From a virus (Duplodnaviria; Caudoviricetes), in the IMG/VR virus record IMGVR_UViG_3300031565_000029, positions 1-59,187 of that record: a DNA stretch of 59,187 nucleotides; one strand, written 5' to 3'. The number at the start of each line of letters is the position of its first letter. Position 1 is the first letter of the stretch. A program made the translations under genes and the position numbers. A model generated the notes under the pieces. It was given only the letters and a program-made list of their open reading frames with translations. It was not told the DNA's origin and did no database searches. Shown piece by piece: positions 769-15,141 of this stretch.

Positions 769-973
769 CTTCTTCACCTTTATATATCTTCTTTTCCTCT
801 GAACTATCAAAAATCGGTTCTAACAAAACGCTTCCACAATAAGGGCAATGAGTAAAATCCTGTTGAGCCCCATAAGGATGCTTAGAAATATATCCATGAG
901 TTCTACATACCATAAGCATCATCTTTGCATACTTCTTGAAGTACTCATCAAAATTTATCTTAGTTCTTGACAA
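761..973 (-). CDS. Small zinc-ribbon protein
   Basis: CxxH...HCPYCG motif. Confidence 0.65.
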   Translation of the reverse strand: MSRTKINFDEYFKKYAKMMLMVCRTHGYISKHPYGAQQDFTHCPYCGSVLLEPIFDSSEEKKIYKGEEDV

Positions 974-977
974 ACTA

Positions 978-1298: not shown

Positions 1299-1524
1299 CT
1301 TTGTTTTCTCCTTCTATCTTAGTTCGGTGTAAACAATCATAACTACAAAGATCATCATACCAATCTTTTAATTGTTTAAGTCTTGTCCCCCATTGTTCTT
1401 TAGTTCCAGAACCATAAGTCTTATCTTCAAGAACAAACCCAATAGTTTCGATTGTACGTGGCGTGGTAACAAGAGCGAAAGCTATCTGAACTTGGTTCAT
1501 TTCCTCAATTTTTGGTAGGTTCAT
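1291..1524 (-). CDS. Hypothetical protein
   Basis: ORF in tightly packed operon with AAGGAG RBS. Confidence 0.65.
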   Translation of the reverse strand: MNLPKIEEMNQVQIAFALVTTPRTIETIGFVLEDKTYGSGTKEQWGTRLKQLKDWYDDLCSYDCLHRTKIEGENKDE

Positions 1525-1557
1525 TCTTCTTCTCCTTTGACACTTGACGTAGAACTA

Positions 1558-1764
1558 TTATTCATCATCGAACTCCGCCTCTATTATAATCCAATTTACC
1601 CAAGTACAAAACACCATAAGAAATAACCATGTAATTCCTTGAAGGAATGTTGTTAACGGTGGATCTTTATCAAACACAGATAAAACCCCCACGAGAACAC
1701 CGCACAACCATAGAGCTTGTACTACCCAAATAGAAAATGCCGTCCATATCGAACTTAGCTTCAT
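1558..1764 (-). CDS. Two-TM membrane protein
   Basis: Two hydrophobic helices; stop in site 1538-1560. Confidence 0.7.
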   Translation of the reverse strand: MKLSSIWTAFSIWVVQALWLCGVLVGVLSVFDKDPPLTTFLQGITWLFLMVFCTWVNWIIIEAEFDDE

Positions 1765-2027
1765 TCCTTTTCCTCTCTTGTGATACTTTGTGTTGAACTG
1801 TCAAGAATTAGAAGTTCTAGGTCTATTCCTATGTCAGTTCGTATCTTGACTATTCTTAGAGCCGAATTATATTCGTATTTACGATCTGAAAGATGGACAA
1901 CTGTTCCGGTGATGGTGTTTCCCGATGGAATTATATCTCCGCGTCTATCAGAAAACGATATTCTTGTATCGGGACATCCGTCGGGATCGCTTATCGATTC
2001 CTTTATGGTAACATTAACTTCTTTCAT
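1761..2027 (-). CDS. Hypothetical protein
   Basis: ATGA overlaps both sides; ends LDSSTQSI through site 1781. Confidence 0.65.
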   Translation of the reverse strand: MKEVNVTIKESISDPDGCPDTRISFSDRRGDIIPSGNTITGTVVHLSDRKYEYNSALRIVKIRTDIGIDLELLILDSSTQSITREEKE

Positions 2028-2287
2028 CTTGTTTCCTTCTTTGTGATTGTTTGAGATAAAGTATTATTTAAGGCTTTCTCATAACACAGGTACGGCCTAA
2101 TGAACGCCTCAAGTTCCTGGCGAAGCACACGAGCACGGGTCTCCATGACACATAAATCCTTGATGCGCCGCTTCACATCATCGACGTGCTGGATCACCGC
2201 GTCGTACCCTACAGGTTGTCGCCGTAAGATTGAAGTCTGCTTAGACTCTTCTTGAACCATGCCTTCTTGAACTGTTCCGTGTCCCAT
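2024..2287 (-). CDS. Hypothetical coiled-coil protein
   Basis: ORF in operon; ends NNTLSQTI through site 2044. Confidence 0.6.
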   Translation of the reverse strand: MGHGTVQEGMVQEESKQTSILRRQPVGYDAVIQHVDDVKRRIKDLCVMETRARVLRQELEAFIRPYLCYEKALNNTLSQTITKKETR

Positions 2288-2293
2288 AGATAC

Positions 2294-2485
2294 CTACTCC
2301 TGAACTCCTTTATCTTTTCGCTCATTTCTTTTCACCCAACTAGGGGTTTGAGGTATAACACGCTGTATCTTTATGCCACACTTGGAGCACGATGCCATAA
2401 GATCGTTTTCTTCGTTGCTCCACCAGAGTTTCGCACGAATGGGGCCACAAACTGGGCACTCGTACCCTTCTTTGTATACAGCCAT
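2294..2485 (-). CDS. Zinc-ribbon protein
   Basis: CPVC...CSKC; TATA-like CTTATATAC about 30 nt upstream. Confidence 0.7.
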   Translation of the reverse strand: MAVYKEGYECPVCGPIRAKLWWSNEENDLMASCSKCGIKIQRVIPQTPSWVKRNERKDKGVQE

Positions 2486-2533
2486 TTTACTTCAAAAATA
2501 TAGGGGGTGAAAGAGTATATAAGGTTTACGTAT

Positions 2534-2989
2534 TTAACGTATCTTAGTGTTCTTGGTGCTGCTGACTTGCATCATGTCGTCGAACGGGTCTTTAATGATC
2601 AGGTTCGTCACGGTTAACTCATCACCAGCCGCGTGATTCATTACGTCATCGCCGAGGTCTTCCCATAACGCTACGCGTATATCTCCGTACTCTGTGTTTA
2701 AGGCAAAGTTCGTCACTGTTTTAGGGCCACTCCTAGTCTCAACGTCTCTTTGAACGGGATCATTGAGCATGGTTCCTTTCAGGGTATTTATGAATTTCCC
2801 TGGGGACAAGTCCTGTGGCTCTGACTCCGCCTTTTTCTTTTGTCTCTCCCGTGGCTTAGGTTTGGCTTCTTTTGGTGTCTCGAAGCCGCCACCCATGAGG
2901 GTGCCGACCATGTCCTGCGTCACCTTAATCTCCTTCAGAATCGTGTCGAGTCGCTGCTCGATGTCTTCCTCCCAACTCATGTTACTCAC
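2534..2989 (-). CDS. OB-fold single-stranded DNA-binding protein (RPA/SSB-like)
   Basis: C-terminal OB fold pattern (VTNFAL..GDIRVALW....GDELTVTN) typical of archaeal RPA/SSB. Confidence 0.75.
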   Translation of the reverse strand: MSNMSWEEDIEQRLDTILKEIKVTQDMVGTLMGGGFETPKEAKPKPRERQKKKAESEPQDLSPGKFINTLKGTMLNDPVQRDVETRSGPKTVTNFALNTEYGDIRVALWEDLGDDVMNHAAGDELTVTNLIIKDPFDDMMQVSSTKNTKIR

Positions 2990-3263
2990 TGTTCAACACT
3001 TCTTGGTGCTTCCTTATATATTCGATGGTTAAACCATTTAAAGGTTTCGCTCGTGCCACGGCCCCTCTCTTTACACGGTATATCTTCGGCGTCTCCCACG
3101 TATAGTGGCTTACCATGCATTCTATGACGGGGCATTCTGGGTTGAGGCATTGTTGGCGCCGTTTTTTAAGGTACGCACTTTCCTTTAGGACTAGGGGTTC
3201 TCCGCAGTCGGGGCAGTTCATTGTTTTATATGATGTCTCCATGTTTTTAAAACCTACGATCAT
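2982..3263 (-). CDS. Zinc-finger protein (Ogr/Delta-like pattern)
   Basis: CPDCG...QCLNPEC. Confidence 0.55.
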   Translation of the reverse strand: MIVGFKNMETSYKTMNCPDCGEPLVLKESAYLKKRRQQCLNPECPVIECMVSHYTWETPKIYRVKRGAVARAKPLNGLTIEYIRKHQEVLNSE

Positions 3264-3270
3264 TCACTCT

Positions 3271-3930
3271 TTACCTAGAACTATCACATAAATCCTTGTA
3301 TAGACAATAGCCACACACTTTTCCTCCCCACGCATCTGAGTTTGAAACCGGTAATGTTTTTTTATCAACACATGATTTCAAATTTAAAGCTCGACTAATC
3401 AACTCTTTCCCTATCTTTCTATCTAGTTCGATTGGGAACGATAAATCAACCTCGGTTCCCCCTCTAAGCAACGCTCCTTTATCAAGATAATCTATAACGC
3501 CATGCTCTAATTCTAGACAATACAGATAAAACTGTAGCTGCTCATTATGCTCTGGCTTCGGCTCCTTCATCCAATGACACGAGGAAGCTGTCTTAACTTC
3601 ATGTGCAACGATCCTGTTTTTATTATGTTGCGTTAACACATCAACGCGACCATGAATAATTAAGTCACCAACAACATGATAAGCTGGAACCTGGGTTCCT
3701 AGTACATATATGTCCGGGTTTTTTCTCAGTATTTCTACCCAGTAGTCTTCAAGGATGTTTCCAGCCTCAAATATTCGCAAGGTCTCTACGGGGAAGGGCT
3801 TATCCTCCGTCACGTCGTAGTATGCCTGTCTCATACATGGCTTAGTTAAGTCTGTTACATAGTAGTGGTTTGGTGGCCTTATTTTTCTGTTCTCGGCCTT
3901 ATGTAGAAGAAACGTATCAATCTTACTCAT
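3271..3930 (-). CDS. cas4: Cas4-like PD-(D/E)XK exonuclease (stand-alone, viral)
   Basis: N-terminal C (PCMRQAYY), GRVD..HEVKT, QLQFY, C-terminal CGYCLYKDLC Fe-S ligands; no CRISPR array nearby. Confidence 0.85.
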   Translation of the reverse strand: MSKIDTFLLHKAENRKIRPPNHYYVTDLTKPCMRQAYYDVTEDKPFPVETLRIFEAGNILEDYWVEILRKNPDIYVLGTQVPAYHVVGDLIIHGRVDVLTQHNKNRIVAHEVKTASSCHWMKEPKPEHNEQLQFYLYCLELEHGVIDYLDKGALLRGGTEVDLSFPIELDRKIGKELISRALNLKSCVDKKTLPVSNSDAWGGKVCGYCLYKDLCDSSR

Positions 3931-3948
3931 TTTATCCCTCTTTGGTAC

Positions 3949-4143
3949 TCATTCCCAATACTCAACTCTGTGACCGCAATCCAAACATTGAAGTGCGTAT
4001 TTGTGGTATCTCACTTCAAGTGTCATTGATGAAAATTTGGGTTGTTTTATATATTCGCTCATTGTTTTTGGTTCTATTTTGGAAGGATTAAGCCTTACTT
4101 TCTCGACGTTGAGGCTTCCACATTTATCACATTTTATACTCAT
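3949..4143 (-). CDS. Zinc-ribbon protein
   Basis: CDKC...CLDC. Confidence 0.7.
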   Translation of the reverse strand: MSIKCDKCGSLNVEKVRLNPSKIEPKTMSEYIKQPKFSSMTLEVRYHKYALQCLDCGHRVEYWE

Positions 4144-4162
4144 CTTGTTTTCACTCTTCTGG

Positions 4163-4663
4163 TTAAACTAATATTTTTGATAGTTTTATATCTCCGAGAT
4201 GCCCCTTCTTAAAATGAACCATGCCCAACTCAAACCCAGTTTGAGGAAAGTTTGGTGGAACTTCGGTTATACATATTTCCTTTATACCAAACCCAGCCTC
4301 CTCTCTATCTCTTCGTCTTGCTTTAGTCCAACAATGGTTTATGGTCATGAGAAAAGCCACGTCATCAGCTAACATGTAAGCGTGTTTAAGAAACGCCCTC
4401 ATTTTTGACCAAGGTGGGTTGGTTATTATCCAATCCACCCTTTCCTTAAAATCGAAGAAGTCTTTACCCTCCGATATTTCGCACCATTTAACATCAAACA
4501 CACCATCTTGTTTTATTAGGGCATTAATGAAAGCCCCCTCCCCTTTACATGGTTCAAGAACGATGCCTTTTGGTTTGAAGTGTTGAACTAATGCTAGAGC
4601 TAATGATTCTGGTGTCATAACCTCATCCGTTGATTTATAGTTTCGATTAGGTTGGGTTCTCAC
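4163..4663 (-). CDS. DNA amino (N6-adenine) methyltransferase
   Basis: TP..L, LEPCKGEGAF SAM motif, ITNPPW catalytic motif. Confidence 0.85.
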   Translation of the reverse strand: MRTQPNRNYKSTDEVMTPESLALALVQHFKPKGIVLEPCKGEGAFINALIKQDGVFDVKWCEISEGKDFFDFKERVDWIITNPPWSKMRAFLKHAYMLADDVAFLMTINHCWTKARRRDREEAGFGIKEICITEVPPNFPQTGFELGMVHFKKGHLGDIKLSKILV

Positions 4664-4836
4664 TCATTATCACTTCTCTTACGTTGCTTTGAAGTATCGC
4701 ACCAGCACTTGAAACACATTGACTTATCCCCCTCCACCCCAACGGTTTTTGACCACTCTAGATATGCTGAAATAGAGAGGGGATTACTATCTAAAATTAA
4801 TATTTCGCTTTCATGTCCACACTTATATTTTGTCAT
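4660..4836 (-). CDS. Small Cys-containing hypothetical protein (58 aa)
   Basis: Manually translated MTKYKCGHE...CFKCWCDTSKQRK; overlaps neighbours at both ends. Confidence 0.65.
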   Translation of the reverse strand: MTKYKCGHESEILILDSNPLSISAYLEWSKTVGVEGDKSMCFKCWCDTSKQRKRSDNE

Positions 4837-5039
4837 GGTTCACCATTTCCTACTTTAGTAGAAACTAAGAAAGGGTTATCTGGATCATTCTCAAGAAACT
4901 CATCATATCTACAATCAACCCAGTTCCAATGAAGTCTATCTAATTTTACAAAGGCTTTACAAGCTCTGCACGCACCGATTCTAGTTAACTCTTCGTCAAT
5001 AGGGCATACAACCGCTAAAACCTGTTTTAGTCTTTTCAT
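4833..5039 (-). CDS. Small Cys-rich protein
   Basis: Start re-called at MKRLKQ (AGGTGA RBS); VCP...CRAC...C. Confidence 0.65.
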   Translation of the reverse strand: MKRLKQVLAVVCPIDEELTRIGACRACKAFVKLDRLHWNWVDCRYDEFLENDPDNPFLVSTKVGNGEP

Positions 5040-5043
5040 TTTG

Positions 5044-5592
5044 TCACCTTTTGGTATGTACCAAGTAAATAGATTCACTTGATTCTCCATTCTTTAATGC
5101 TTGCCATTTTGGTTTGATGTACTTCTGTGCGAACTCACGCATCTCATCAAAGGATAACAAATTACTTTTCAGAAAATTGCACCGTTCACACGCAAGAACA
5201 AGATTTCCAGTTTTGTATCCAACGGAATTATCAATACAATCAACTGTTAATCTATCAGTTCTAGAACCATACCTCTGTTTTAAGAAAATGAAGTCGGCTT
5301 CCGGTATATCACAGTAAGCACAAATCTTAGGTTCACTAATATACCACTCAACAAACTCAGCTTTAATTATCTCAAATGGTTTTGCCGCGGGGTGATTATG
5401 TTTATTATAATATATTTGTCTACTTTTGATTTGGTTGTATATTCCAACGGGGGTATGCCTATATCGTTCAGCTTCCTTTCGACAGCATTCTTTACACCAA
5501 GAATTAAGGTTGCTCTTTGTTTGTCTATTTTTCCCAAAGCGTGTTAATGGTTTTGTTTCACCACATCGAGGGCACCGCTTAGATGCAATCAT
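5044..5592 (-). CDS. Zn-finger plus HNH/His-Me-like endonuclease domain protein
   Basis: KRCPRC..CKEC N-terminus; CAYC...LTVDCIDNSVGY..NLVLACERCNFLK; paralog of 8849..9373. Confidence 0.75.
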   Translation of the reverse strand: MIASKRCPRCGETKPLTRFGKNRQTKSNLNSWCKECCRKEAERYRHTPVGIYNQIKSRQIYYNKHNHPAAKPFEIIKAEFVEWYISEPKICAYCDIPEADFIFLKQRYGSRTDRLTVDCIDNSVGYKTGNLVLACERCNFLKSNLLSFDEMREFAQKYIKPKWQALKNGESSESIYLVHTKR

Positions 5593-5654
5593 ACTAACAA
5601 CCTATGTGTGCCGTCATATTTAACTGTTGTGTTATGATAGTATGGTATAAACTA

Positions 5655-6092
5655 TCATTCAAAATCCCACCGATGGGATTTATAAAGTTCGTCCGTCTTT
5701 TTACTCCAAACACTAGCTGAAACAGACTCATAGCAAACTTTACAGAGATACTCAGGGGGGTCACCGAAACTTTCTTCTTTTAAATCTGTGCTTCTTTCCT
5801 CCCCACATAAGGCACAGGTGAAACTGCCTTTACCAGCTTTACTACACTCTTCGCAAACATAATTATCTCTTGTATCTTTTGAAGTGCCTTCATATTGAAT
5901 CCCAGCGCGTTTAAGTTGTGAGTCCAAGTTGGTTTTCCAGTAATAAGGAAATAAGTTTCGCATTCTTTGTGTATCCTTTTTTTCCATTTTTATCATAGGT
6001 CGATTACAGACAGAACATTTAGATAGTTGAATTATTACCTTCGCGTATCCTTCGTTTTCAATTAGTTCTGGTACAAATTCTTCTAGATTCAT
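5655..6092 (-). CDS. Multi-zinc-finger protein
   Basis: Four CxxC pairs; stop is the outer TGA of site 5635-5657. Confidence 0.7.
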   Translation of the reverse strand: MNLEEFVPELIENEGYAKVIIQLSKCSVCNRPMIKMEKKDTQRMRNLFPYYWKTNLDSQLKRAGIQYEGTSKDTRDNYVCEECSKAGKGSFTCALCGEERSTDLKEESFGDPPEYLCKVCYESVSASVWSKKTDELYKSHRWDFE

Positions 6093-6097
6093 TTCGG

Positions 6098-6379
6098 TTA
6101 CTCCTCAATCTTTGTTGTGGGTGAACTGTCATAATCTAGTCTTTTCATAATCTCACACCCCTCAACATGAACAAAGTCATCTATATTACAATCATGGCAA
6201 CATGTAAAATTTGGGCAAGCATATTCCACTATCTTGTAGAACTCATCACCGAACTTATCGTAGGCTTTGTTAAGAATATAGGTGAGCATTCTGCTATTAG
6301 GGTGCATTATGATTGGACAATGGTTACAGTCCTCATTACAGAGTTTGATAGTTGGGTATGAAGTATCACTCATGGTCAA
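6098..6379 (-). CDS. Cys/His-rich hypothetical protein
   Basis: CNEDCNHC, CCHDC..DDFVHVEGC; bounded by sites 6109 and 6346. Confidence 0.7.
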   Translation of the reverse strand: MTMSDTSYPTIKLCNEDCNHCPIIMHPNSRMLTYILNKAYDKFGDEFYKIVEYACPNFTCCHDCNIDDFVHVEGCEIMKRLDYDSSPTTKIEE

Positions 6380-6530
6380 CTGCTCCTGCTATAGCAGCGG
6401 ATAAACAAGCGGAGAGGATGTATAATACCTCCAATGTAACATTTTCTGTTATAAATAGGTGTCGCACGGCGTTTGAAAACATCCATACAGTATTAACATA
6501 CCAAACGTTTCTAAGCCATTTGTTACTCAT
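6366..6530 (-). CDS. Small membrane protein (54 aa)
   Basis: Manually translated MSNKWLRNVWYVN...AIAGAVDHE; stop is the outer TGA of site 6346-6368. Confidence 0.6.
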   Translation of the reverse strand: MSNKWLRNVWYVNTVWMFSNAVRHLFITENVTLEVLYILSACLSAAIAGAVDHE

Positions 6531-6786
6531 TGGGGTCACCATCTATCTTTGTTTCGGATAAACTGTCAAGTTTTTGTTCCAAGATTTTTATTTTAAGAAT
6601 CAGGGCATCTCTAGTAAGTGAATTAGGATCAGCATCACCATATTCTCTGTGAATAAACTCTAATTCATCTCTAGCCTGTTTATGGGGACATTCGTCAAGC
6701 CAACAGTTAGGGTAGTAACAAGTAGCTGGCCCCTCTACAGGATCATCCTCAGATTCTATCATGCAACGAAAGCTTTCAAAACTCAT
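6523..6786 (-). CDS. Hypothetical protein
   Basis: Start re-called at MSFESFRC; ends LDSLSETK through site 6546. Confidence 0.6.
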   Translation of the reverse strand: MSFESFRCMIESEDDPVEGPATCYYPNCWLDECPHKQARDELEFIHREYGDADPNSLTRDALILKIKILEQKLDSLSETKIDGDPNE

Positions 6787-7024
6787 TGTTTTTCTCTCTC
6801 CGTCTTTGCTCAGAAGTATTAGATAGTTTGAGGCTTGGGCATACCAAACTAGCGGGGCTAAAAGGTAAGTCTCCAAAAACTTTTTGATTTAGACCCTTAA
6901 GAGATTTGAAAAACTCCATATGTGGAAACCACTTCTCTCCGCAATCATTACATTTATAAATAGAATCCCTTGCTTCAGTGCCATAGAACTCCGTATTTTC
7001 TGATGCGCATTTAGGGCACTTCAT
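6776..7024 (-). CDS. Zinc-ribbon protein
   Basis: CPKC...YKCNDCG. Confidence 0.7.
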   Translation of the reverse strand: MKCPKCASENTEFYGTEARDSIYKCNDCGEKWFPHMEFFKSLKGLNQKVFGDLPFSPASLVCPSLKLSNTSEQRRREKNNEF

Positions 7025-7177
7025 TTATCCTTCCTCCGTTTTCATTGTTTGATTAGAACTATCAAACGTAAGAAGGATTTTATCTGCCTCAGCTTGGGTC
7101 ATAAACCCCTTATCTACGAGAGCCTGATTGTACCCAGCCACGTATCCATGATTGAATATTTCCGTATTATTCTTCAT
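7025..7177 (-). CDS. Small hypothetical protein (50 aa)
   Basis: Start re-called at MKNNTEIF; bounded by sites 7042 and 7181. Confidence 0.55.
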   Translation of the reverse strand: MKNNTEIFNHGYVAGYNQALVDKGFMTQAEADKILLTFDSSNQTMKTEEG

Positions 7178-7847
7178 TTTTCTTTCTTCCTTGTAAAGTA
7201 TAAGGAGTGGTTCCTGGGAACCATATCTTCCTTGGTATGTAGCTACCGGAGCCCTCGTCGAGACGCCCCACAATACTACCATTCTGAGGCTCATATATAT
7301 AAGACTTTCCGTCGACATCAATGAAGGCATTAAACGCGTGTGTACGGCTCCAAACCACCATGAACCCTCCCTGACGTTTGAGCCCCGCCTTAAGGAAAAG
7401 GATACTCATAAAGTCATACATGGTTGTGGCGAAGTTGTCGCAATCGCTTATCTCTTTAACCCATTTTCCGCGTGCCTTCACGGTCTCCACCTGTATCGGG
7501 GGCAGTATCTTCATCCAGGTATCATAGGGTAGCGCATAGTATTCCTCGTCGGCGACCAGCACATCATTGACTGGCCATATCAGGTCGTATGGGTCGAACA
7601 ACCACTCGGGTTCGGTGTGGATGCTGAGAACTGGTATCTGTATGGATTCGTCGAGTGCCTGTTGCATGTGTTCGATGCGGGTGCGATACATTAACGCTTG
7701 TTTCGATAGCATCTCATAGTTTTTCTTATTCATTTCTGTGAGTTTTTTCTGTGTTTCTAATTCTTTCTGTGTGAGCCGTAACCCCGCTTCAGTGGCTTCC
7801 AACCTATGTTTTAGTTTATAGCAGAACAGATCTTCCAGTAGCGTCAT
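7167..7847 (-). CDS. Coiled-coil plus papain/transglutaminase-like cysteine protease domain
   Basis: DCDNFA...HAFNAF...YIYEPQ gives a Cys-His-Glu triad pattern. Confidence 0.65.
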   Translation of the reverse strand: MTLLEDLFCYKLKHRLEATEAGLRLTQKELETQKKLTEMNKKNYEMLSKQALMYRTRIEHMQQALDESIQIPVLSIHTEPEWLFDPYDLIWPVNDVLVADEEYYALPYDTWMKILPPIQVETVKARGKWVKEISDCDNFATTMYDFMSILFLKAGLKRQGGFMVVWSRTHAFNAFIDVDGKSYIYEPQNGSIVGRLDEGSGSYIPRKIWFPGTTPYTLQGRKKNEE

Positions 7848-7864
7848 GCCACATAGGGATAGTT

Positions 7865-8695
7865 TTAAGAGTTTAAAAAGGTTACGTATTTAACCAACAA
7901 TTTCTTGGCGTACCGTCTAGCCTGTTTCTCAAGCTGAGGAAGTGCTACTCGGCTTTCACGTAAATCCATATACATGTAGTGTTTACCCATTGCTTGAGAC
8001 ACACCAATACGTTGACCGCTAATAGTCCATCCACCAAAATAGGCTCCATCAACCTGATCAAAACCATAGTCATTCATAACCGTTTGTAAACTAATTTTCC
8101 TCAAGACATGACTCGTTACAGGCTTCCATCTAGGATCAACTTTTTCGCCAACGCTTGCGTATTCTAAGTCCTTGGTCCAAGAACGCTCGCCGTCAGGAAA
8201 GAATACAAGGTATTCTTCGTACCCATCATCGCCCCATCGTTGAGTTTTAACCATGTCTTTGGTGTACGATCTTTTAATGCTTCTAGTATAGTCACTCATG
8301 GGCCAATACATGCCCTTAAACGCTTGTTTAGCTTCATTCATCGCGTAGGTCTTGCTAGTCGCCACGTTCTCATGTAAACTAAATGGATAGACACCCCCAG
8401 ACTCGATGTAATCAAGAACCTTCTTTGCCCACGGATCATATTCCAAGTTCAAGGGGCGAGCACAGGGGCGCAACATCCCTTTACGCTTAGCGGTCTTGAC
8501 GATAAACATAACAAATTCTTCGCCCTCGACTTCTATTATGATGTGGTCGTCTCGGCTTGGCATATATTTTCCGGCGACTTCGCTAATGCGCCCCAGGGTC
8601 TCATACTGGTACATGTAGGCGAAGCGATATTGTTTGTCTTTGACGGCTTCGATGCGGTTTCTTATCTCTAGATCGGTGGGTTGCCGGTGAAGCAT
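7865..8695 (-). CDS. Tyrosine recombinase (catalytic domain only, with internal insertion)
   Basis: GRISE (R), KTAK (K), HVLR (HxxR), GGW (W), KHYMY (Y) in correct order. Confidence 0.85.
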   Translation of the reverse strand: MLHRQPTDLEIRNRIEAVKDKQYRFAYMYQYETLGRISEVAGKYMPSRDDHIIIEVEGEEFVMFIVKTAKRKGMLRPCARPLNLEYDPWAKKVLDYIESGGVYPFSLHENVATSKTYAMNEAKQAFKGMYWPMSDYTRSIKRSYTKDMVKTQRWGDDGYEEYLVFFPDGERSWTKDLEYASVGEKVDPRWKPVTSHVLRKISLQTVMNDYGFDQVDGAYFGGWTISGQRIGVSQAMGKHYMYMDLRESRVALPQLEKQARRYAKKLLVKYVTFLNS

Positions 8696-8715
8696 CCCTT
8701 ACTTATAACTGTTAC

Positions 8716-8733
8716 TATCTTATAACTTTATTG
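8716..8733 (-). promoter_or_regulatory. BRE/TATA promoter CAATAAAGTTATAAGATA for the recombinase
   Basis: Exact 18-mer also at 8801-8818 (+) and 15045-15062 (+); TTATAA about 28 nt before ATG 8695. Confidence 0.7.
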
Positions 8734-8800
8734 ATACTTGATAATTAGGGTGGTGTGGAGATTGGTGCAACCCATAAGTAATATATGAGTTTCTCCACAC

Positions 8801-8818
8801 CAATAAAGTTATAAGATA
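8801..8818 (+). promoter_or_regulatory. Divergent copy of the same promoter motif
   Basis: Exact inverted copy of 8716-8733, upstream of 8849. Confidence 0.65.
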
Positions 8819-8848
8819 CCTTATATATAATGATTTCGGTGCAACACC

Positions 8849-9373
8849 ATGAGTGAAAAGTATTGTAAACGTTGTGATAGAACACTTCCAATTTGGGACT
8901 TTCATAAAGACAAAAATAGTAAAGATGGGCACGCATTCTATTGTAAGAAATGTACTTATACGCTAGGGAAAAAATATAGGCATACCCCTAGAGGAATTTA
9001 TAAATGTGCTAAAACTCGTCAAACTTATTATAGAAGACACAATGATCCACGAATGAAACCATTTAAAATATCGTTAAATTGGTTTTTAGAATGGTACGCT
9101 TCTCAAGAAAAGAAATGTGTATATTGTAATATCCCTGAAGAACTTTTAAGTGTTGTTGATGACATATATAATAATAAATGCACAAATCTAACTTTGGATT
9201 GTATGGATAATGATAAAGGATACACAGAAAAGAACCTCGTCTTATCTTGTCTTAGATGTAATTATACAAAAAGTAACCTTCTATCTTTTGATGAAATGTA
9301 TGAGATAGGACAGAAATATTTTAAACCAAAATGGCAACAAAACATAAAAATCTCTTTTGATAACAAACTATAA
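8849..9373 (+). CDS. Zn-finger plus HNH/His-Me-like endonuclease domain protein
   Basis: KYCKRC..CKKC; CVYC...LTLDCMDNDKGY..NLVLSCLRCNYTK; AT-rich; only convincing + strand gene in the left arm. Confidence 0.75.
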   Translation: MSEKYCKRCDRTLPIWDFHKDKNSKDGHAFYCKKCTYTLGKKYRHTPRGIYKCAKTRQTYYRRHNDPRMKPFKISLNWFLEWYASQEKKCVYCNIPEELLSVVDDIYNNKCTNLTLDCMDNDKGYTEKNLVLSCLRCNYTKSNLLSFDEMYEIGQKYFKPKWQQNIKISFDNKL

Positions 9374-9380
9374 GAAAAAT

Positions 9381-9614
9381 TCATTTCTTTTTTATCGTCT
9401 CCGTGATAGGTATGCGTGAGGATTGAGGCTGTAGTTGTGCCCTCATCCTATCTATTTCGGCTTGTAATCTCGCGTTTTGGGCTTTTATTCGTCGTGATTG
9501 TAGTTTTGCTAGTTCGATCTGTAATTCCGCTTTTTGTAGTTCCCTTTTTGTGATCTCGCTTTGTAGGTTTGCGATTTCGAGTTCTAGTTTTATTTCTTCA
9601 ATTTTAACTTCCAT
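9381..9614 (-). CDS. Coiled-coil protein
   Basis: Heptad repeats; GGGGTGA RBS. Confidence 0.7.
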   Translation of the reverse strand: MEVKIEEIKLELEIANLQSEITKRELQKAELQIELAKLQSRRIKAQNARLQAEIDRMRAQLQPQSSRIPITETIKKK

Positions 9615-9631
9615 TTCATCACCCCCTTAAC

Positions 9632-9976
9632 TTATGAAACTAAATCCTCATACTCCGATTCCGAAAGTTGAATCCCGTTCCCTTCTAGTGGTCTTAGTTT
9701 TTCCAAAAGAGTTTCAACTTTTCCTATGTATTCTCTTCTCGGACCGTCTCTCACTTTGTTATCTATCACGTATTCCAACATTTCGAGCTGGTAATCAAAG
9801 GGAAACGTCCACACGATGCCAGTAAGATATCGCTTATCTTTTTTTGCTATGTCTGGGGGATAGTTTCTGTCACTTGGTGCTTCAACGATTAAACATAAAC
9901 AGTTTTTATGTAATTTATAACCACCAACGACTTTAAGATCATCTAGTTCTTTTTCTGTAAGTTCAGGAAAACCCAT
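9632..9976 (-). CDS. Hypothetical protein
   Basis: Start re-called at MGFPEL (TAATG overlap with the MTase stop). Confidence 0.65.
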   Translation of the reverse strand: MGFPELTEKELDDLKVVGGYKLHKNCLCLIVEAPSDRNYPPDIAKKDKRYLTGIVWTFPFDYQLEMLEYVIDNKVRDGPRREYIGKVETLLEKLRPLEGNGIQLSESEYEDLVS

Positions 9977-11103
9977 TATTTTTCCTGCTCCATCGTTCCA
10001 AACGTTTCCCACCCTTCTCTGTCTTTTCTCGCAAAGTAATCCAGTTTTCTTCCCTCAACGTATCCGTCCACAAAGTCATAGAACTCAGGTGGTTTTATGC
10101 TATGTCCTAGGTTCTTAGCGTGAAGTGCCGTGGTTTGATTGGTTAATTTAAATTTTGGTTTGCCTTTTACCGCTAAGATTACGTGTTCGGTGATTCCCCT
10201 CAACCAGTACCCAATCCCCATTCTATCTTTTATCCACGTAAGGATCGTCTTTGACTCAAACCCCCATTTCTCTATGATGTGGTAAGCGTCGTGCATGAAG
10301 GCGTTGGTTGTCCACATGAATAACATACAGGATTCCTCGTTTGCTGGAATCTCCATATTCATAATTTCTTCTATGGACATCTCTGGATAAGGTGACGCCA
10401 CGCGTCTAGTATCGGGGTCATACTCTGTTCCATAGTTCCACGGGGGGTCGATCACGATTACCTCAAATTTTCCATTCGGGAGTGCGAGTTGTTTTACTTC
10501 CTCTTTTAGTTCTTCGTTTGCTTGTTTTCTTTCTATTTTCTTTATTTCTTTGTATGCTCTGGATACGCTTGTTTCTCCGCTGAGGACTTGTTTTTTAAGT
10601 TCTTCTGGTGCTTTCTCTATTACTGTTTTGGCTCGGTGGTATGTTGTTGGGCTGAGTCCTACGGTTTTAGCCGCCTGATCACGGGACTTAATGTGGTGTT
10701 CATTTGAACCTAACACTGGCTGAAAACCTTTTTCGCCTTCAAGGGGTATCGTTGCTTCTTGTCTTTGTTTGGCTTTCTCAGCGTATAACGGCTCAAGGTT
10801 TATTGCAAGTTGGGCTTTCTGAATGGAGGAAAGGTGTCTACGAAGAATATTGGATTCGATAACAAATATTTTCTCATCAAGTTCAGAATCAAACTCTCTA
10901 ATATCTGTTCGATAGAAACACCCATGTTTAATACATATCTCATACCGAGTATGTCCATCAAGAATCATGTCGTTTTGATTAATTATGATGGGTTCGGTGG
11001 CTTCTTTTTTTTCGACGATATTAGCTTCGAGTGATGCGTATTCTTCCTTCGTTGGGCGTGGGACCAAAGCCATATAATTAGGATTAACGATAAGCGGCTT
11101 CAT
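9976..11103 (-). CDS. ParB-like/HTH domain fused to MT-A70-family adenine methyltransferase
   Basis: PIII..ILDGHTR...NILRRHL ParB core; HTH; IVIDPPW, LFMWTT, GIGYWLRG.TE, HS.KP, FAR..R.GW MT-A70 motifs. Confidence 0.88.
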   Translation of the reverse strand: MKPLIVNPNYMALVPRPTKEEYASLEANIVEKKEATEPIIINQNDMILDGHTRYEICIKHGCFYRTDIREFDSELDEKIFVIESNILRRHLSSIQKAQLAINLEPLYAEKAKQRQEATIPLEGEKGFQPVLGSNEHHIKSRDQAAKTVGLSPTTYHRAKTVIEKAPEELKKQVLSGETSVSRAYKEIKKIERKQANEELKEEVKQLALPNGKFEVIVIDPPWNYGTEYDPDTRRVASPYPEMSIEEIMNMEIPANEESCMLFMWTTNAFMHDAYHIIEKWGFESKTILTWIKDRMGIGYWLRGITEHVILAVKGKPKFKLTNQTTALHAKNLGHSIKPPEFYDFVDGYVEGRKLDYFARKDREGWETFGTMEQEK

Positions 11104-11195
11104 ACTAACTAAAAAAGGTTAAACACGCTTATAACTTTTTCTATTCCCAAAAACAACGTTTATGATACTTCAAGTACAAGTAAGATAAAGGAGAG

Positions 11196-11354
11196 CTACG
11201 TCCTAACGCTGTGTTTGAAAATGGAAACTTGAATGAATTTCTCAGGGGTTTGGATCCTTCTCTCTTGTTGAATGAACTCTAATTCTTCCAGTTTGGAATC
11301 ACTGGGGTTGTTCATATATTCCTCTCTTTTTTTAATAAAGTAAGACTCTGTCAT
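11196..11354 (-). CDS. Small hypothetical protein
   Basis: Start re-called at MTESYF (ATGA overlap). Confidence 0.5.
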   Translation of the reverse strand: MTESYFIKKREEYMNNPSDSKLEELEFIQQERRIQTPEKFIQVSIFKHSVRT

Positions 11355-11710
11355 AGTATTTTCCTCGGCAACAGCCAAAAGTCGGCACATTTTTTATAGT
11401 CCTCTTGATAATCAGACTTACACATTGTTTGACAATGGGATTCAGGATTTATTGACCACTCGCACTTTGATTTATCTATCCTCTTAATATCTGAGGCTAT
11501 GGACGCAAGGTATTCTCTTGCTTCCTTCAAGCATTTAGAGTGAACCATAATCTTGTTTTCTTCATCCCATTCATAAGGTTCATCATCAAGCGATTTACCA
11601 CAAAGAGGGCATCCATTTTCAATCTCTGGGTCTTCTCCCCTATATCGTAGTTCTTCGTCTGTTGGGAAGCCTGTTGATTCTGCTAAATCCCAAGGATCGG
11701 GTGATTCCAT
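11351..11710 (-). CDS. Cys-rich hypothetical protein
   Basis: CPLC..HSKC, further Cys cluster; AAGGAG RBS. Confidence 0.7.
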   Translation of the reverse strand: MESPDPWDLAESTGFPTDEELRYRGEDPEIENGCPLCGKSLDDEPYEWDEENKIMVHSKCLKEAREYLASIASDIKRIDKSKCEWSINPESHCQTMCKSDYQEDYKKCADFWLLPRKIL

Positions 11711-11779
11711 TATGTCCGTTCTCCTTTAGATTAAATGGGGGTTATCCACTATTTAACCTTTATGACTGTTCTAACACAA

Positions 11780-12256
11780 CTAAGATTTTACGAAAGTAAC
11801 CCACCACGTAGTTCCCCGAATATAACCCGATCCTTTTGTTCTATAACTAACTCTATGAATTTCTCTCCAAAACCCCTTAAAAACTGAGTATAATTGCCAT
11901 AAAGTAGGTACATCGCGGTTTTCATTCCATTTAAAACAAAGGATGCCCCCAACGCGAGCAAACTCTTTGATTGCTTTAAATAATGTTGGGGCTATCTCTT
12001 TTTTTCTTGTCCAACACCCATAATTTTTAATTATACTCATTTTGTTTGTGTATCCCGTGCTTCTCACTAAATGAGGAGGATCGAATATTATCGATTTAAA
12101 GGCTCCATCTCTAAAAGGTAGATATTCCCACATGGCGATGATGTCTGGTTTAATAGTTAAATCTTCAGTCCGTTTGTCCATAAAAACAACAAAAGGCATA
12201 TCCTTTACCGGCCACATCATTCTGTTTCCCGCCGTCGCGTCAAGTATTGGTTTCAT
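11780..12256 (-). CDS. Small DNA methyltransferase (DPPH type)
   Basis: ILDATAGNRMMW, IFDPPH, FKWNE; bounded by sites 11763 and 12261. Confidence 0.85.
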   Translation of the reverse strand: MKPILDATAGNRMMWPVKDMPFVVFMDKRTEDLTIKPDIIAMWEYLPFRDGAFKSIIFDPPHLVRSTGYTNKMSIIKNYGCWTRKKEIAPTLFKAIKEFARVGGILCFKWNENRDVPTLWQLYSVFKGFWREIHRVSYRTKGSGYIRGTTWWVTFVKS

Positions 12257-12280
12257 TTTGTGACACTTTAAATAGAACTA

Positions 12281-12841
12281 TCATAAAGTTCCCTGTCTTG
12301 GGGCTGTGTGTTGTTTCATCAACATAATCCAATAACTAGGCGTGGCGTTTTCACTAAGGGTCTTTATAGGAATTCTCATCATTTCTGTCCATCCGACAAA
12401 CACACCCAATATTTCATTTAGCTTTATTCTATTCTCACTCCACTTTAACCAAAGTTGGCCATCATCTGACAAAATCCTATTGAACTCTTGTTGGGATTGA
12501 AATATAAACTCCATTAAATCGCTTCTTGTCTTATATTTATCTGCACCATAATAACAATGAACAGTTCTTTTTATATTAGGCCATTTTTCAGTTAACTTGG
12601 ATGTGTTTGGTGTGGTATAAACCGAAGTGTTTTTTGTTCTTCCAAATTCATGTGGTGGATCAAAATATATTGTATGGAACACACCCTCATCAAAACCTGT
12701 ATTTCTACAATCCATTATCTTATCCGGTTTTATAGTCAAATCATCCTCTATGTCTATCCAAAAAATATGGGGAGACTCTTTTGTTTTCCAGATAGTTCTG
12801 TTAGCGGCCGTGGCATCTAATATTCTAGCATTTTTCTTCAT
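12281..12841 (-). CDS. Small DNA methyltransferase (DPPH type), paralog
   Basis: ILDATAANR, YFDPPH, LKWSE; bounded by sites 12261 and 12846. Confidence 0.8.
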   Translation of the reverse strand: MKKNARILDATAANRTIWKTKESPHIFWIDIEDDLTIKPDKIMDCRNTGFDEGVFHTIYFDPPHEFGRTKNTSVYTTPNTSKLTEKWPNIKRTVHCYYGADKYKTRSDLMEFIFQSQQEFNRILSDDGQLWLKWSENRIKLNEILGVFVGWTEMMRIPIKTLSENATPSYWIMLMKQHTAPRQGTL

Positions 12842-12858
12842 TCTATCACTGTTTAGTA

Positions 12859-13431
12859 TCAACTATCATACTCTGGATCATAATAGTCGTCCTCATCATA
12901 TTTTTCCTTGTATGTTCTTTTTCTGCCCGTCGGTTCTCTAGGCCGGTCTTCTTCTGTATACCGTATTTCTGAACCCATAAAGTAAACACCATCGATATGT
13001 GGTTTAGCTTGTATTTCCATAAGAACCACCGTTCCTGTTTGGCGGTCCTTTTTGATGAAAATATAGGGTATTGTTTTTTGTATGATGTCCTTCTCAGCCA
13101 AGTTCGTTGTTTTTAATGTAACTGTATATAGTTCAGAAATGCCATCATCATAATTAATTATTGGTATTCCTAATTCGTTAAAATAACCCAAATAGGATTC
13201 TTGATTATAATACCTATATTTAATTATCCACTCAACGTCCACACATTCTTCCTCAAGACTCAACCAATAAAGACTTAACTTTGGTTCTACTACGAGAAAG
13301 GAGGTGGGAACCATCCACGTAAGATACATCTTTTCTTTGGTGGACTGAACGGGTAGACCACATACACTTCCTGATGCCGGAAGTGCTTTGTCTGGGTTAG
13401 TAGATGCCATATATAAAGAAGATTCTATCAC
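12859..13431 (-). CDS. Hypothetical protein
   Basis: 190-aa ORF bounded by sites 12846 and 13428. Confidence 0.6.
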   Translation of the reverse strand: MIESSLYMASTNPDKALPASGSVCGLPVQSTKEKMYLTWMVPTSFLVVEPKLSLYWLSLEEECVDVEWIIKYRYYNQESYLGYFNELGIPIINYDDGISELYTVTLKTTNLAEKDIIQKTIPYIFIKKDRQTGTVVLMEIQAKPHIDGVYFMGSEIRYTEEDRPREPTGRKRTYKEKYDEDDYYDPEYDS

Positions 13432-13655
13432 TGTTCTGCACCAACTAATATTTCTGGGTGTCTAACCTGATAGCATTCTTTACATAGTCCTCCGTAGAAT
13501 GAGAACTCTGGTGGAGCTATCTTCTTAAGACAGTCGTAGCAATCCATAGTTATTGGTTCTAGTGTTTTACTTCTATCTTGTAATGTGGATAACCAGAGAC
13601 AGAAAACATACCCTGTTATGAATCCGAACACTAGTAAAATAATTTCTATTCCCAT
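13428..13655 (-). CDS. Membrane-anchored zinc-finger protein
   Basis: N-terminal TM helix, CYDC...CKEC. Confidence 0.7.
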   Translation of the reverse strand: MGIEIILLVFGFITGYVFCLWLSTLQDRSKTLEPITMDCYDCLKKIAPPEFSFYGGLCKECYQVRHPEILVGAEQ

Positions 13656-13667
13656 CTTTGTTTAACC

Positions 13668-13835
13668 TCAAGTATCATAATCGTACATTAACTCGAATTG
13701 GGGGCAATGTCCATAAACGAAATCATATATGGCTTCAAACGGAGGTTCCCACCAAGGATAAGTCTTTTTCACCGTACTCTCAAACTCTCGTATTATGAAG
13801 CACACATGTCGTTTTTTACATTTAAAACAAGTCAT
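13668..13835 (-). CDS. Small Cys-containing protein
   Basis: Start re-called at MTCFKCKKRHVC. Confidence 0.65.
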   Translation of the reverse strand: MTCFKCKKRHVCFIIREFESTVKKTYPWWEPPFEAIYDFVYGHCPQFELMYDYDT

Positions 13836-13839
13836 TTTT

Positions 13840-13995
13840 TCATCTCTCCTTATGATCGAATAAGGGGTATTGCCAGAACCCGTTATCGTCAAGCTCCCCG
13901 TACCCACAGGTTAGGCCGCCGCCTATGTTATGTGAATAACAGGGTTTGAAGCCAAGCCGTTTAAGGATTCTCGCTACCCAGTTTCTCCAAGTCAT
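13840..13995 (-). CDS. Small hypothetical protein (51 aa)
   Basis: Manually translated MTWRNWVARILKRLG...CGYGELDDNGFWQYPLF; ATGA overlap. Confidence 0.65.
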   Translation of the reverse strand: MTWRNWVARILKRLGFKPCYSHNIGGGLTCGYGELDDNGFWQYPLFDHKER

Positions 13996-14162
13996 TTTTC
14001 AAGCGTCTCCAATATATCATCTATCAAGTTATTCCAGTCCCAATGATCACACTCGTTCTGGTAATATTCAAGGGTTTTTCTAATCTCGTCAAGCTGGTTC
14101 TGGGCGAAGTCAAGTTCTCGTGCCTTATCTTCACAGGCCGTGCAGTTATCCATGTAACTCAT
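13992..14162 (-). CDS. Small hypothetical protein (56 aa)
   Basis: Manually translated MSYMDNCTACEDKARELD...; AGGTGA RBS within site 14168. Confidence 0.65.
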   Translation of the reverse strand: MSYMDNCTACEDKARELDFAQNQLDEIRKTLEYYQNECDHWDWNNLIDDILETLEK

Positions 14163-14167
14163 TTTTA

Positions 14168-14422
14168 TCACCTTTCAATGTCAACTATCATAGAATCTAA
14201 ATATAGTTTCATATCATCTACGAGATACTGGTTTCTGTATTCTGGGTTGTCTTCCATAAACCTGAGAAGCACATTCATGACGTGCAATTGGTTCATGCGT
14301 GTCTCCATTAAGTCCAAGGTTTTAAGCGCACTTCTCCCACCCATGGCCGTTCCTACCTTCTTTGCCGCTTTTCTAAGTTCCTTTAACTCATCTTTCGGTA
14401 TACCTAAAGTTGATCTTGTCAT
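14168..14422 (-). CDS. Hypothetical protein
   Basis: Bounded by sites 14168 and 14419. Confidence 0.7.
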   Translation of the reverse strand: MTRSTLGIPKDELKELRKAAKKVGTAMGGRSALKTLDLMETRMNQLHVMNVLLRFMEDNPEYRNQYLVDDMKLYLDSMIVDIER

Positions 14423-14604
14423 TGTTTATCCACAACAAAGATTTTTTTGATTCCGATCTTTGAACCCTTAATTAGGATTCTTTCATAATCGGATTCCCCT
14501 ATCTCTTTAAGATAGGAATCCACCTCCTCGATGGTGCTAAATTCTTCAAGGTGATAGAACCCATCTTCGTTCAAGTCTATTAACATATAATATTTTTCAT
14601 CCAT
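14419..14604 (-). CDS. Small acidic protein, near the start of the left arm
   Basis: TATA-like TTAAATA elements at 14624-14641 upstream. Confidence 0.65.
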   Translation of the reverse strand: MDEKYYMLIDLNEDGFYHLEEFSTIEEVDSYLKEIGESDYERILIKGSKIGIKKIFVVDKQ

Positions 14605-14722
14605 TTTTCTTCACATAACCATATATTTAACAAGTATTTAAGGTTTACGAATCACAGATAATGGGGAAAAGTATGACTAGCCTCAACCCAAGTGACGGCC
14701 AACGTCCCAAAGATGTAGAACA

Positions 14723-14962
14723 CTATGATATCCGTTTCCTACGTCCCCCCCTAGCCTCAGCTAAAACCCTAACCCTCATAAACGCCTGGGCAATAGACAC
14801 GGTCCCCCCCAAGAAAAGCCCCACGATGTCACCCCAATAATAATAGGTATCCGGCCACCTAAGCAGGTATCCACAATACTCCATGCCAAGCGAAACCTGT
14901 ATTGCCCCAACCACAACCAGCAACCCCGTCAACATCATTTCAACCAAACAAACCATACGCAA
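14723..14962 (-). CDS. Possible two-TM membrane protein
   Basis: Two hydrophobic segments and a basic tail, but lies in a strongly C/A-biased tract. Confidence 0.35.
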   Translation of the reverse strand: MRMVCLVEMMLTGLLVVVGAIQVSLGMEYCGYLLRWPDTYYYWGDIVGLFLGGTVSIAQAFMRVRVLAEARGGRRKRIS

Positions 14963-15044
14963 ACAAGTATAAAAGACTTATGGAACCAACCAAATACCCA
15001 CCCAACACTACCAATATACTCATAACATACCACCAATACACAAC

Positions 15045-15062
15045 CAATAAAGTTATAAGATA
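15045..15062 (+). promoter_or_regulatory. Promoter at the start of the late arm
   Basis: Third copy of CAATAAAGTTATAAGATA at the strand switch. Confidence 0.6.
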
Positions 15063-15141
15063 GTATCCCAACCCTATGTACAGGGAATATACACTCCCGC
15101 CTCCCTTAGACATATCTATTAAGCGCGGGATAGGTGATAAC

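Follow-up and report, generated by a model that had tools for sequence, protein, structure and literature searches.

A predicted single-domain tyrosine recombinase from a tailed virus represents an unannotated clade in which an insert before the HxxR motif is optional

The DNA analyzed here, a stretch of 59,187 nt that we refer to as the window, is the whole of IMG/VR record IMGVR_UViG_3300031565_000029; it comes from a tailed virus, is classed as linear, and has a completeness rating of 47%. An open reading frame (ORF) on its minus strand, at positions 7865 to 8695, encodes a protein of 276 amino acids which, judged by its modeled structure, conserved residues, and relatives, is with good support a tyrosine recombinase of one domain only; the clade it falls into lacks annotation, and the insert it carries is optional. 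The product is predicted to be a catalytically competent site-specific enzyme made of the catalytic domain alone. An original prediction, made from the letters only, had called a tyrosine recombinase with a large insert before the HxxR motif, and on this point fold, residues, and transitive homology all agree, with the insert (residues 139 to 186) preceding H196. The chemistry of the enzyme is fairly secure; what it does for the virus is the least certain part of the picture.

The structural evidence starts from an AlphaFold model built on an alignment of 43 sequences, which reached a mean predicted local distance difference test score (pLDDT) of 91.3 and a predicted template modeling score of 0.85. 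Compared with 48,161 solved chains, this model matched 147 at Z ≥ 2, the top 29 of which are exclusively tyrosine recombinases, topoisomerases IB, or protelomerases. Specifically, the matches include XerA (4a8e, Z 13.0, root-mean-square deviation 3.5, 165 aligned residues, 19% identity; 5hxy, Z 12.4), the Brujita integrase (5vfz, Z 13.0), lambda Int (1ae9, Z 12.2), the integron integrase VchIntIA (2a3v, Z 11.3), and SSV1 Int (3vcf, Z 10.7, 156 aligned), as well as protelomerases (Z 6.0 to 9.7) and topoisomerases IB (Z 5.3 to 8.8). The integrase matches cover model residues 2 to 276. Foldseek agreed weakly, giving probabilities of 0.97 to 1.00 for Cre and lambda Int yet E values of ≥0.016; a Foldseek-type match to one viral integrase model had an E value of 1.5e-5.

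Direct sequence comparison returned little. The protein matched 0 families in Pfam even at E ≤ 10, with both PF00589 and PF16795 unmatched, and used singly or as profiles A1 and A2 it had zero relevant matches in PHROGs, NCBIfam, PADLOC, and the PDB sequences. Likewise, the 43-sequence profile found nothing relevant in the PDB, and tblastn against 50,697 phage records gave zero matches. The bridge to known enzymes is provided by short family forms of ∼200 to 235 amino acids, to which the query profile aligns with an hhalign probability of 100 and an E value of 5.6e-60. PF00589 recognizes 17 of 40 such short forms at E ≤ 0.1, with a lowest E value of 1.3e-6, and one of them scores 22.2 bits, under the cut-off of 27.1. 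The recombinase call thus follows from the fold, the conserved residues, and transitive homology via the short forms.

As originally predicted, the R-K-HxxR-W-Y signature is intact: read in order, it comprises R36, K70, H196, R199, W223, and Y240, all present, and the catalytic tyrosine can now be resolved as Y240. Among the 43 homologs of the close family, K67, K70, R199, W223, and Y240 are each kept in ≥90%, and the commonest pattern in 101 family representatives is RKHRWY plus Y262 (55/101; see Table 1 for individual positions). The model places K70 in the turn between strands 59-68 and 74-81, and we choose it as the likely catalytic lysine over its neighbors K67 and K72. For the nucleophile, the choice lies between Y240 and Y262. 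Position 240 is a tyrosine in all 65 representatives whose R-K-H-R-W residues are intact, 10 of which carry S, F, or P at position 262; among the 22 representatives (of 101) that have lost R36 or R199, Y240 is kept in 6 and Y262 in 15. Moreover, profile alignment lines Y240 up with an RY motif of the short forms. Because Y240 is kept or lost along with the rest of the catalytic set and aligns with this motif, we infer that it is the nucleophile and that Y262 is structural.

The most conspicuous property of the protein is what it does without. Only 35 residues lie N-terminal to the catalytic arginine, and the earlier statement that this arginine sits near residue 36 with no room for a core-binding domain is borne out, R36 being invariant in 43/43 homologs. 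An N-terminal extension in frame can be ruled out because an in-frame TAA lies two codons 5′ of the ATG and the close homologs in the 43-homolog alignment share the start position. Consistent with this layout, the first helices of the model already belong to the catalytic domain, their counterparts starting at residue 102 in XerA and at residues 176-177 in lambda Int. No core-binding family of the Phage_int_SAM type was reported in 65 wider relatives or in the 55 other window ORFs of ≥100 amino acids, and no other recombinase-like gene was seen among these 55. Across 29 gene maps, in which small neighboring ORFs were not folded, there was no constant neighbor gene that could supply a binding domain. 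In the scheme set out by Smyshlyaev 2021, all tyrosine recombinases fall into classes built of a core-binding (CB) plus catalytic (CAT) domain or of an arm-binding (AB) domain followed by CB and CAT. Against this scheme the bare catalytic-domain layout is unusual, yet it is not unprecedented, as FimB, FimE, and MpsA illustrate.

The second property is the insert, a beta-rich element in the hairpin that leads up to the HxxR helix. The segment YWPMSDYTRS...VDPRWKP (residues 130 to 192) runs directly into S-H196-V-L-R199, and a profile alignment to the short forms opens a gap at ∼139-185. Where the original prediction had counted about 50 to 60 extra residues before HVLR, a large insert is indeed in place, its 48 residues falling slightly below that estimate. 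The model shows strands at 136-143, 149-154, 160-165, 171-174, and 179-186, and the insert folded by itself gave a pLDDT of 87.2. The best structural matches of the lone insert were Tudor, chromo, SH3, and Sac7d-derived scaffolds; at Z 2.0 to 2.4 we considered these too weak to name its fold or a DNA-binding role.

Conservation of the insert tells a clear story. Nine of the 43 close homologs are without it, having 9 to 20 residues at this position versus 48 to 52 in the others. An excellent example is given by the insert-less proteins P0068, P0070, and P0073, which outside the insert are 85 to 88% identical to the insert-bearing P0065; such near-identical enzymes carry a 9-residue loop in its place. 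The insert-less P0067, P0069, P0071, and P0073, inspected row by row, retain the GRISEV, TAKR, SHV.RK, and GGWT motifs as well as the tyrosine; P0068 and P0070 are covered by the conservation statistics of the alignment. Among the 65 representatives with an intact catalytic set, between 3 and 55 residues occupy this position (≤18 in 42 and 52 to 55 in 6), and in P0083 there is a weak match to a cysteine-rich domain at 151-171 (PF25436, E 0.0031). Because the lengths vary so widely, the hairpin before HxxR is an insertion hot spot, and because the insert is optional, it cannot be a general substitute for a core-binding domain. The proposal that it replaces the missing DNA-binding domain is therefore not supported: it is absent from 9/43 close homologs and from most of the wider family, and it is not IntI-like. 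It may instead add extra DNA or subunit contacts in one subclade.

Relatives of the protein form a large, uncharacterized clade that comes mostly from viruses of archaeal type and from environmental archaea; in its basic form, the protein is ∼200 to 230 amino acids long. There were 75 proteins at E ≤ 1e-3, and an exhaustive HMMER search returned 173 cluster representatives (50% identity), 89 of them at E ≤ 1e-10, mostly unnamed environmental sequences. A pattern scan for short forms in IMG/VR found none. As far as profile matches tell, the clade is unannotated in Pfam, NCBIfam, and PHROGs, with PF00589 reaching short members only. We found no description of it in the literature; the supplementary tables of PMC8138268 and PMC10848311 may list such proteins. 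The idea of a new cassette-recombinase family thus survives in part: the unannotated clade stands, but nothing ties the enzyme to cassette sites, as detailed below. An archaeal host is likely because the nearest ESM-Atlas clusters are mostly archaeal (80%, with Bathyarchaeota the commonest) and because the recombinase gene has a TATA-like box and no Shine-Dalgarno (SD) sequence.

The candidate cassette sites are 23-bp dyads of the form TGATAGTT-N7-AACTATCA, on which the enzyme had been proposed to act. The window has 15 matches at ≤3 mismatches, compared to a mean of 2.65 in 20 shuffles. Fourteen of the 15 have a 7-nt spacer whose letters vary from copy to copy, and many copies extend to 9+9 arms around a 5-nt center. 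In the window, the dyads lie 4 to 18 nt before the SD sequence and ATG of successive small minus-strand genes. At least one dyad is present in 19 of 28 homolog-bearing loci of ≥3 kb, and locus L010 (8 copies in 2.7 kb) and the relative G001 (8 copies) are particularly rich in them. However, 9 of the 28 loci have none, and neither does G002, a relative with a 46% identical recombinase, in 62.8 kb, so that dyads go with the enzyme at the larger share of the homolog-bearing loci only. In the dyad-equivalent place before start codons, G002 has instead ∼24 copies of a non-palindromic, gene-oriented motif, TCAGAGTT-N7-AAC[A/T]GCGA, which looks like a diverged version of the dyad signal. Taken together, the dyads read as lineage-specific, gene-proximal regulatory elements of this virus group, recognized by some binding factor, rather than crossover sites; they may work as operators in the DNA or as hairpins in the RNA.

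Rearrangements around the dyads were also considered. Of 12 internal points at which homology between related contigs breaks off, at least 3 coincide with a dyad or adjoin one (L011/L053 and L022/L043 in the 3-mismatch scan, and L030/L052 at a more degenerate copy, by eye). A dyad copy also sits between or just after the members of both tandem pairs of paralogous genes in the window, consistent with duplication via exchange at dyads. Aligning Logan contigs of four runs to window positions 1 to 20000 gave many dyad-to-dyad joints, for example, 12285 to 12844, 12872 to 14159, and 13678 to 14160. We rejected these joints as recombination products since their shorter side measures 18 to 32 nt, and joints of this kind often come from repeats or other organisms. 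With dyads fixed to SD/ATG or TATA signals, unconserved spacers, a G002 without dyads, and no unambiguous recombination product at a dyad, the proposed action of the enzyme on dyads as cassette sites is not supported; nothing links the enzyme to the dyads.

Expression signals also dominate the region upstream of the gene. A TTATAA starts 30 nt before the recombinase ATG, as counted in the sequence, which corresponds to a TATA-like box ∼30 nt upstream of a start codon without SD sequence. Among 54 distinct upstream regions taken from relatives, 37 have a TATA-like hexamer at −42 to −24, and 24 have the right half-site of the dyad further upstream, at −62 to −38. The window box is part of an 18- to 21-nt repeat with TTATAA inside, copies of which are found at 8713-8733 (−), 8799-8818 (+), and 15043-15065 (+), with a weaker one at 15010-15029; as inverted repeats, these give I8 (21 nt, 100%) and I21 (18 nt, 100%). 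Each perfect copy faces a start codon (8695, 8849, and 15076). By these sequence signals, the recombinase gene has its own early-type promoter, and the three copies probably represent repeated use of a single strong promoter.

How does the enzyme compare with known systems? The same one-domain layout is seen in Escherichia coli FimB and FimE, invertases encoded beside their switch, in which PF00589 extends over residues 12-181 (of 200) and 6-177 (of 198), respectively. In contrast with our protein, which scores nothing on PF00589, these two reach 197 and 189 bits; they also have no insert before HxxR, and they act as bacterial chromosomal switches, whereas the present gene belongs to a virus. 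Comparison of FimB with a profile built from the short relatives gave a probability of 0.9 and no meaningful alignment. The integron integrase IntI (2a3v), another fold match, also has a family-specific insert, which we take to lie at the same hairpin before HxxR. There it is a short alpha-helix; here it is 48 residues of beta strands, and optional. The match to 2a3v starts at residue 104, leaving the N-terminal part of IntI absent here, and the 23-bp, sequence-conserved dyads differ from attC cassette sites, whose hairpins are longer and conserved in structure. According to Escudero 2016 (PMC4792948), the I2 domain of IntI is a 20-residue insert that makes room for the extrahelical bases of attC. 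Neither an I2-like helix nor an attC-type cassette array next to the integrase was found, the dyads being tied to SD/ATG or TATA and absent from G002, which speaks against the integron-like interpretation of insert and dyads.

Other comparisons bring out the missing N terminus. XerA (Pyrococcus abyssi, 4a8e; 5hxy) is the best structural match to the catalytic domain and shares the R-K-H-R-H/W-Y chemistry. Unlike our protein, it has ∼100 N-terminal residues without counterpart here, since the match starts at its residue 102, and it has no beta insert. Badel 2021 presents XerA as a chromosomal dimer resolvase. Xer-like simple recombinases in general have a core-binding domain, for which the 35 residues before R36 leave no equivalent. 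The SSV-type integrases (3vcf, PF16795) share the archaeal-virus setting, and small archaeal PF16795 proteins are among the nearest ESM-Atlas clusters; however, neither the query nor 40 short relatives matched PF16795, and 3vcf covers residues 174-335 of SSV1 Int, implying a long N-terminal part there. A core-binding domain of their own is also lacking in the recombinase-type catalytic proteins of the MpsA/MpsB system of SGI1 and TcpM of pCW3. According to the account in Kiss 2019 (PMC6414798), MpsA, by prediction a lambda recombinase family member, has as its partner MpsB, a protein similar to a core-binding domain. In SGI1, the adjacent mpsB thus supplies the binding domain, whereas no conserved neighbor was seen to do so in our 29 gene maps; furthermore, the SGI1 and pCW3 systems serve conjugation, and the present gene resides in a tailed virus.

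We favor a reading in which the enzyme recombines the viral genome at one specific site, for either integration and excision or multimer resolution; put in such general terms, this is rather probable, though far from assured. As in other members of the family, two recombinase subunits would occupy a short core site made of inverted repeats, two core sites would be paired in a tetramer, Y240 would attack the DNA to form a 3′-phosphotyrosyl link, and strands would be exchanged via a Holliday junction. Without a core-binding domain, the enzyme would probably rely on short sites and on accessory DNA-bending or bridging factors, which FimB and FimE likewise need, and the insert could serve this subclade as an extra DNA or subunit contact. 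A homodimer prediction scored 0.01 relative to a mark of 0.42 and is no evidence either way.

Several observations sit uneasily with site-specific recombination of this kind. Recombinase activity is deduced from fold and residues, for a protein to which sequence models are blind. The distance from W223 to Y240 is 17 residues, as opposed to ∼9 to 10 in textbook enzymes, and this stretch has the lowest confidence in the model (pLDDT 66 to 73). A two-pattern scan of one genome each of 185,579 species returned 0 relatives, and IMG/VR only 2; no provirus, att site, or host junction emerged from these genome and IMG/VR pattern scans. A 29-nt piece of the window's tRNA-Pro gene also had zero exact matches in those genomes. 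In related loci, arrays of nine (L026), three (L043), and two (L007) tRNA genes adjoin the recombinase gene. We rejected tRNA genes as att sites, given that the arrays hold up to 9 different tRNAs and have the look of viral tRNA clusters; together with the 47% completeness, the arrays fit a large, possibly virulent virus over a small temperate one. Finally, the recombinase is far better conserved than the large terminase: across three virus lineages, identity is 46 to 49% for the former, and 24% or too low for detection for the latter, a contrast that fits horizontal gene transfer or a core replicative role.

One alternative is cassette exchange. It comes in two versions: a recombinase that shuffles small early genes among dispersed dyads in integron-like fashion, with the insert replacing the binding domain; and a virus-borne exchange of gene cassettes in which dyads, placed before most small early genes, before the promoter of the enzyme in relatives, and at the edges of variable modules, serve as minimal core sites and the insert is an add-on extending DNA contact in one subclade. 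In the second version, exchange would take place between identical sites on co-infecting genomes, or involve one strand only and be resolved by the neighboring endonuclease VII-like HNH protein. The dyad itself is real (15 matches versus 2.65, 14/15 with a 7-nt spacer), precedes many small genes singly, and is common to relatives (19/28 loci, L010, and G001), where it also stands directly before the recombinase promoter in 25 of the 54 distinct upstream regions; its 8-7-8 geometry would be compatible with a short recombinase core site. That window and G001 share few genes yet share the dyad points the same way, and exchange at dyads would explain the homology breaks located there between related viruses (at least 3/12), although a mosaic virus would show breaks at gene boundaries in any case. 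Against cassette exchange stands the architecture of the sites. Spacers differ between copies, and unlike spacers block ordinary tyrosine-recombinase exchange between sites; where the arms reach 9+9, the remaining 5-nt center is too short for a crossover region. Added to this are the tie of the dyads to SD+ATG and TATA signals, the enzyme-bearing G002 with 0 dyads and ∼24 non-palindromic motifs, the 9/28 homolog-bearing loci without dyad, and the optional nature of the insert, and we regard both versions as very improbable.

A FimB/FimE-like invertase flipping a segment between the perfect inverted repeats beside its own gene deserves slightly more credit but is still quite improbable. FimB and FimE are the only characterized enzymes with the one-domain layout that we checked, and perfect inverted repeats (I8, 21 nt; I21, 18 nt) directly adjoin the gene, so that 8713-8733 could pair with 8799-8818, ∼67 bp away, or with 15045-15065, 6.3 kb away. 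Yet the three copies, with TTATAA at promoter distance from start codons, have the look of repeated promoters; the repeat is without internal dyad and spacer; relatives mostly differ upstream, where they have dyad plus TATA; and 67 bp is very short for synapsis. Nor was there a strand-changing joint among the 15 of 35 joints listed, all from Logan contigs. The remaining candidate is a use of the recombinase fold for single-strand nicking and rejoining, as in a relaxase, initiator, or topoisomerase-like enzyme, or as a sequence-specific DNA-binding regulator. It would suit the high conservation across lineages, which fits a core function, the loss of R36 or R199 in 22/101 family members, and the dyad before the gene's own promoter as a possible autoregulatory site; the recombinase-fold phage regulators MrpR and SroF are among the fold matches (8a0a, Z 8.5; 9rd5, Z 10.0), and MpsA has been proposed to be an atypical relaxase, with TcpM similar (Kiss 2019, PMC6414798). 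But this protein and its close family keep every catalytic residue, arguing for chemistry, and HxxR plus W is a recombinase pattern, with integrases at Z 11 to 13 versus 5.3 to 8.8 for topoisomerases IB and 6.0 to 9.7 for protelomerases. Nor was a conserved neighbor that could supply a binding domain seen in the 29 gene maps. We consider such a role unlikely, and recombination at one specific site of the viral genome remains our preferred reading.

Beyond the recombinase, the window carries the gene set listed in Table 1, including several further DNA methyltransferase genes. Exact terminal repeats, direct or inverted, are present in neither the window nor G001 and G002 and hence lend no support to circular closure or hairpin telomeres. 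The 226-amino-acid protein encoded directly downstream of the recombinase has C-terminal DCDNFA ... HAFNAF motifs which, by eye and with family searches returning none, presumably resemble those of transglutaminase-like cysteine peptidases; homologs occur in G001 (40% identity) and L047 (33%). The proteins recognizably common to the window and G001 are the recombinase, the HNH protein, and this 226-amino-acid protein, with a few weaker matches besides. In the window, G001, G002, and L012, the recombinase gene has an HNH/endonuclease VII-like gene at a distance of no more than ∼1 kb, which could encode a functional partner or a homing endonuclease; from its domain match, the LAGLIDADG protein among the tail genes is probably a free-standing homing endonuclease. 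In general, the recombinase is conserved while its neighbors vary between relatives: in most of the longer loci, a convergent glycosyltransferase cluster, the counterpart of the one inside the structural module of the window, immediately follows the gene, and in L025 the recombinase neighbors are 81 to 91% identical to window genes located 30 kb from the window recombinase.

Table 1. Coordinates of features in the window and, where stated, in related loci
Feature	Position	Strand	Basis or remark
Single-domain tyrosine recombinase gene (predicted; stop codon included)	7865..8695	−	ORF list, translation, AF2 model, fold matches
R36 codon, first catalytic Arg (GRISEV, box I)	8588..8590	−	invariant 43/43; R in 83/101 family representatives
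K70 codon, KTAKRKG beta2-beta3 turn, likely catalytic Lys	8486..8488	−	K in 75/101, R in 19/101
Facultative beta-rich insert, residues 139-186, in hairpin YWPM ... RWKP before HxxR helix	8138..8281	−	
H196-V-L-R199, HxxR motif (box II)	8099..8110	−	H196 invariant, R199 ≥90%; H in 72/101, R in 89/101
W223 codon (GGWT), H/W position	8027..8029	−	≥90% in close family; W in 79/101
Y240 codon (KHYMYMD), inferred nucleophile	7976..7978	−	
Y262 codon (RYAKKLL), C-terminal helix, conserved	7910..7912	−	probably structural
Divergent intergenic region with recombinase promoter	8696..8848	.	repeat finder I8, I21, D14
Dyad copies	356-378, 539-561, 958-980, 1317-1339, 1538-1560, 1781-1803, 2044-2066, 5635-5657, 6346-6368, 7042-7064, 12261-12283, 22802-22824, 45200-45222, 58154-58176		
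Weaker dyad copies	near 11163, 12844, 13426, 13653, 14166, 22139		
G002 motif examples	44645, 46011, 54504, 58558		loci L075-L078
Cas4-like nuclease	3271-3930		
Two paralogous zinc-ribbon + HNH proteins	5044-5592; 8849-9373	−; +	match PHROG "endonuclease VII" families
226-aa protein directly downstream of recombinase	7167-7847	−	coiled-coil N terminus
ParB-MT-A70 fusion	9976-11103		
Tandem pair of paralogous genes, DNA methyltransferase-like	11780-12256, 12281-12862	−	
Large terminase	16051-17298		
Portal	17851-19197		
Second tandem paralog pair	21496-22134, 22168-22797	+	22168-22797: weak concanavalin-like (Laminin_G_3) match
Glycosylation gene cluster, ∼16 kb inside structural module	∼29068-45193		glycosyltransferases, pyruvyl transferase, MurB-like, epimerase/dehydratase, DegT aminotransferase
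Tape measure	46467-48587		
LAGLIDADG-domain protein among tail genes	51721-52434	+	PF14528, E 6.5e-17
tRNA-Pro(TGG) gene	58948-59025	−	within 1-kb non-coding stretch, right end of window
tRNA genes in relatives	L026 43-1617, L043 957-1192, L007 950-1100, L011 62-135, L034 596-671, L013 1062-1136, L040 1796-1870		

The family also includes longer relatives of 362 to 467 amino acids (P0087, P0096, P0105, P0106, P0133, P0114, P0118, and P0176), which have the same recombinase-like domain at their N terminus. In P0087, the catalytic Arg and His are replaced, by eye. C-terminal fusions are to HNH (P0106, P0133, and P0176) or TIR (P0114) domains, and in other longer relatives a helical domain carrying an R-x5-H motif is HEPN-like by eye. 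Going by these domain combinations, the longer relatives may be defense-type effectors in which a dead recombinase domain serves to recognize DNA.

For the tyrosine recombinases at large, the clade is of interest as a populous group that persists as a bare catalytic domain with its catalytic residues kept, in place of the usual two-domain clamp. The near-identical enzyme pairs with and without insert are natural material for a clean test of insert function, and small recombinases with short sites are attractive for genome engineering. Since standard models miss the clade, viruses and mobile elements that carry it are annotated as integrase-less.

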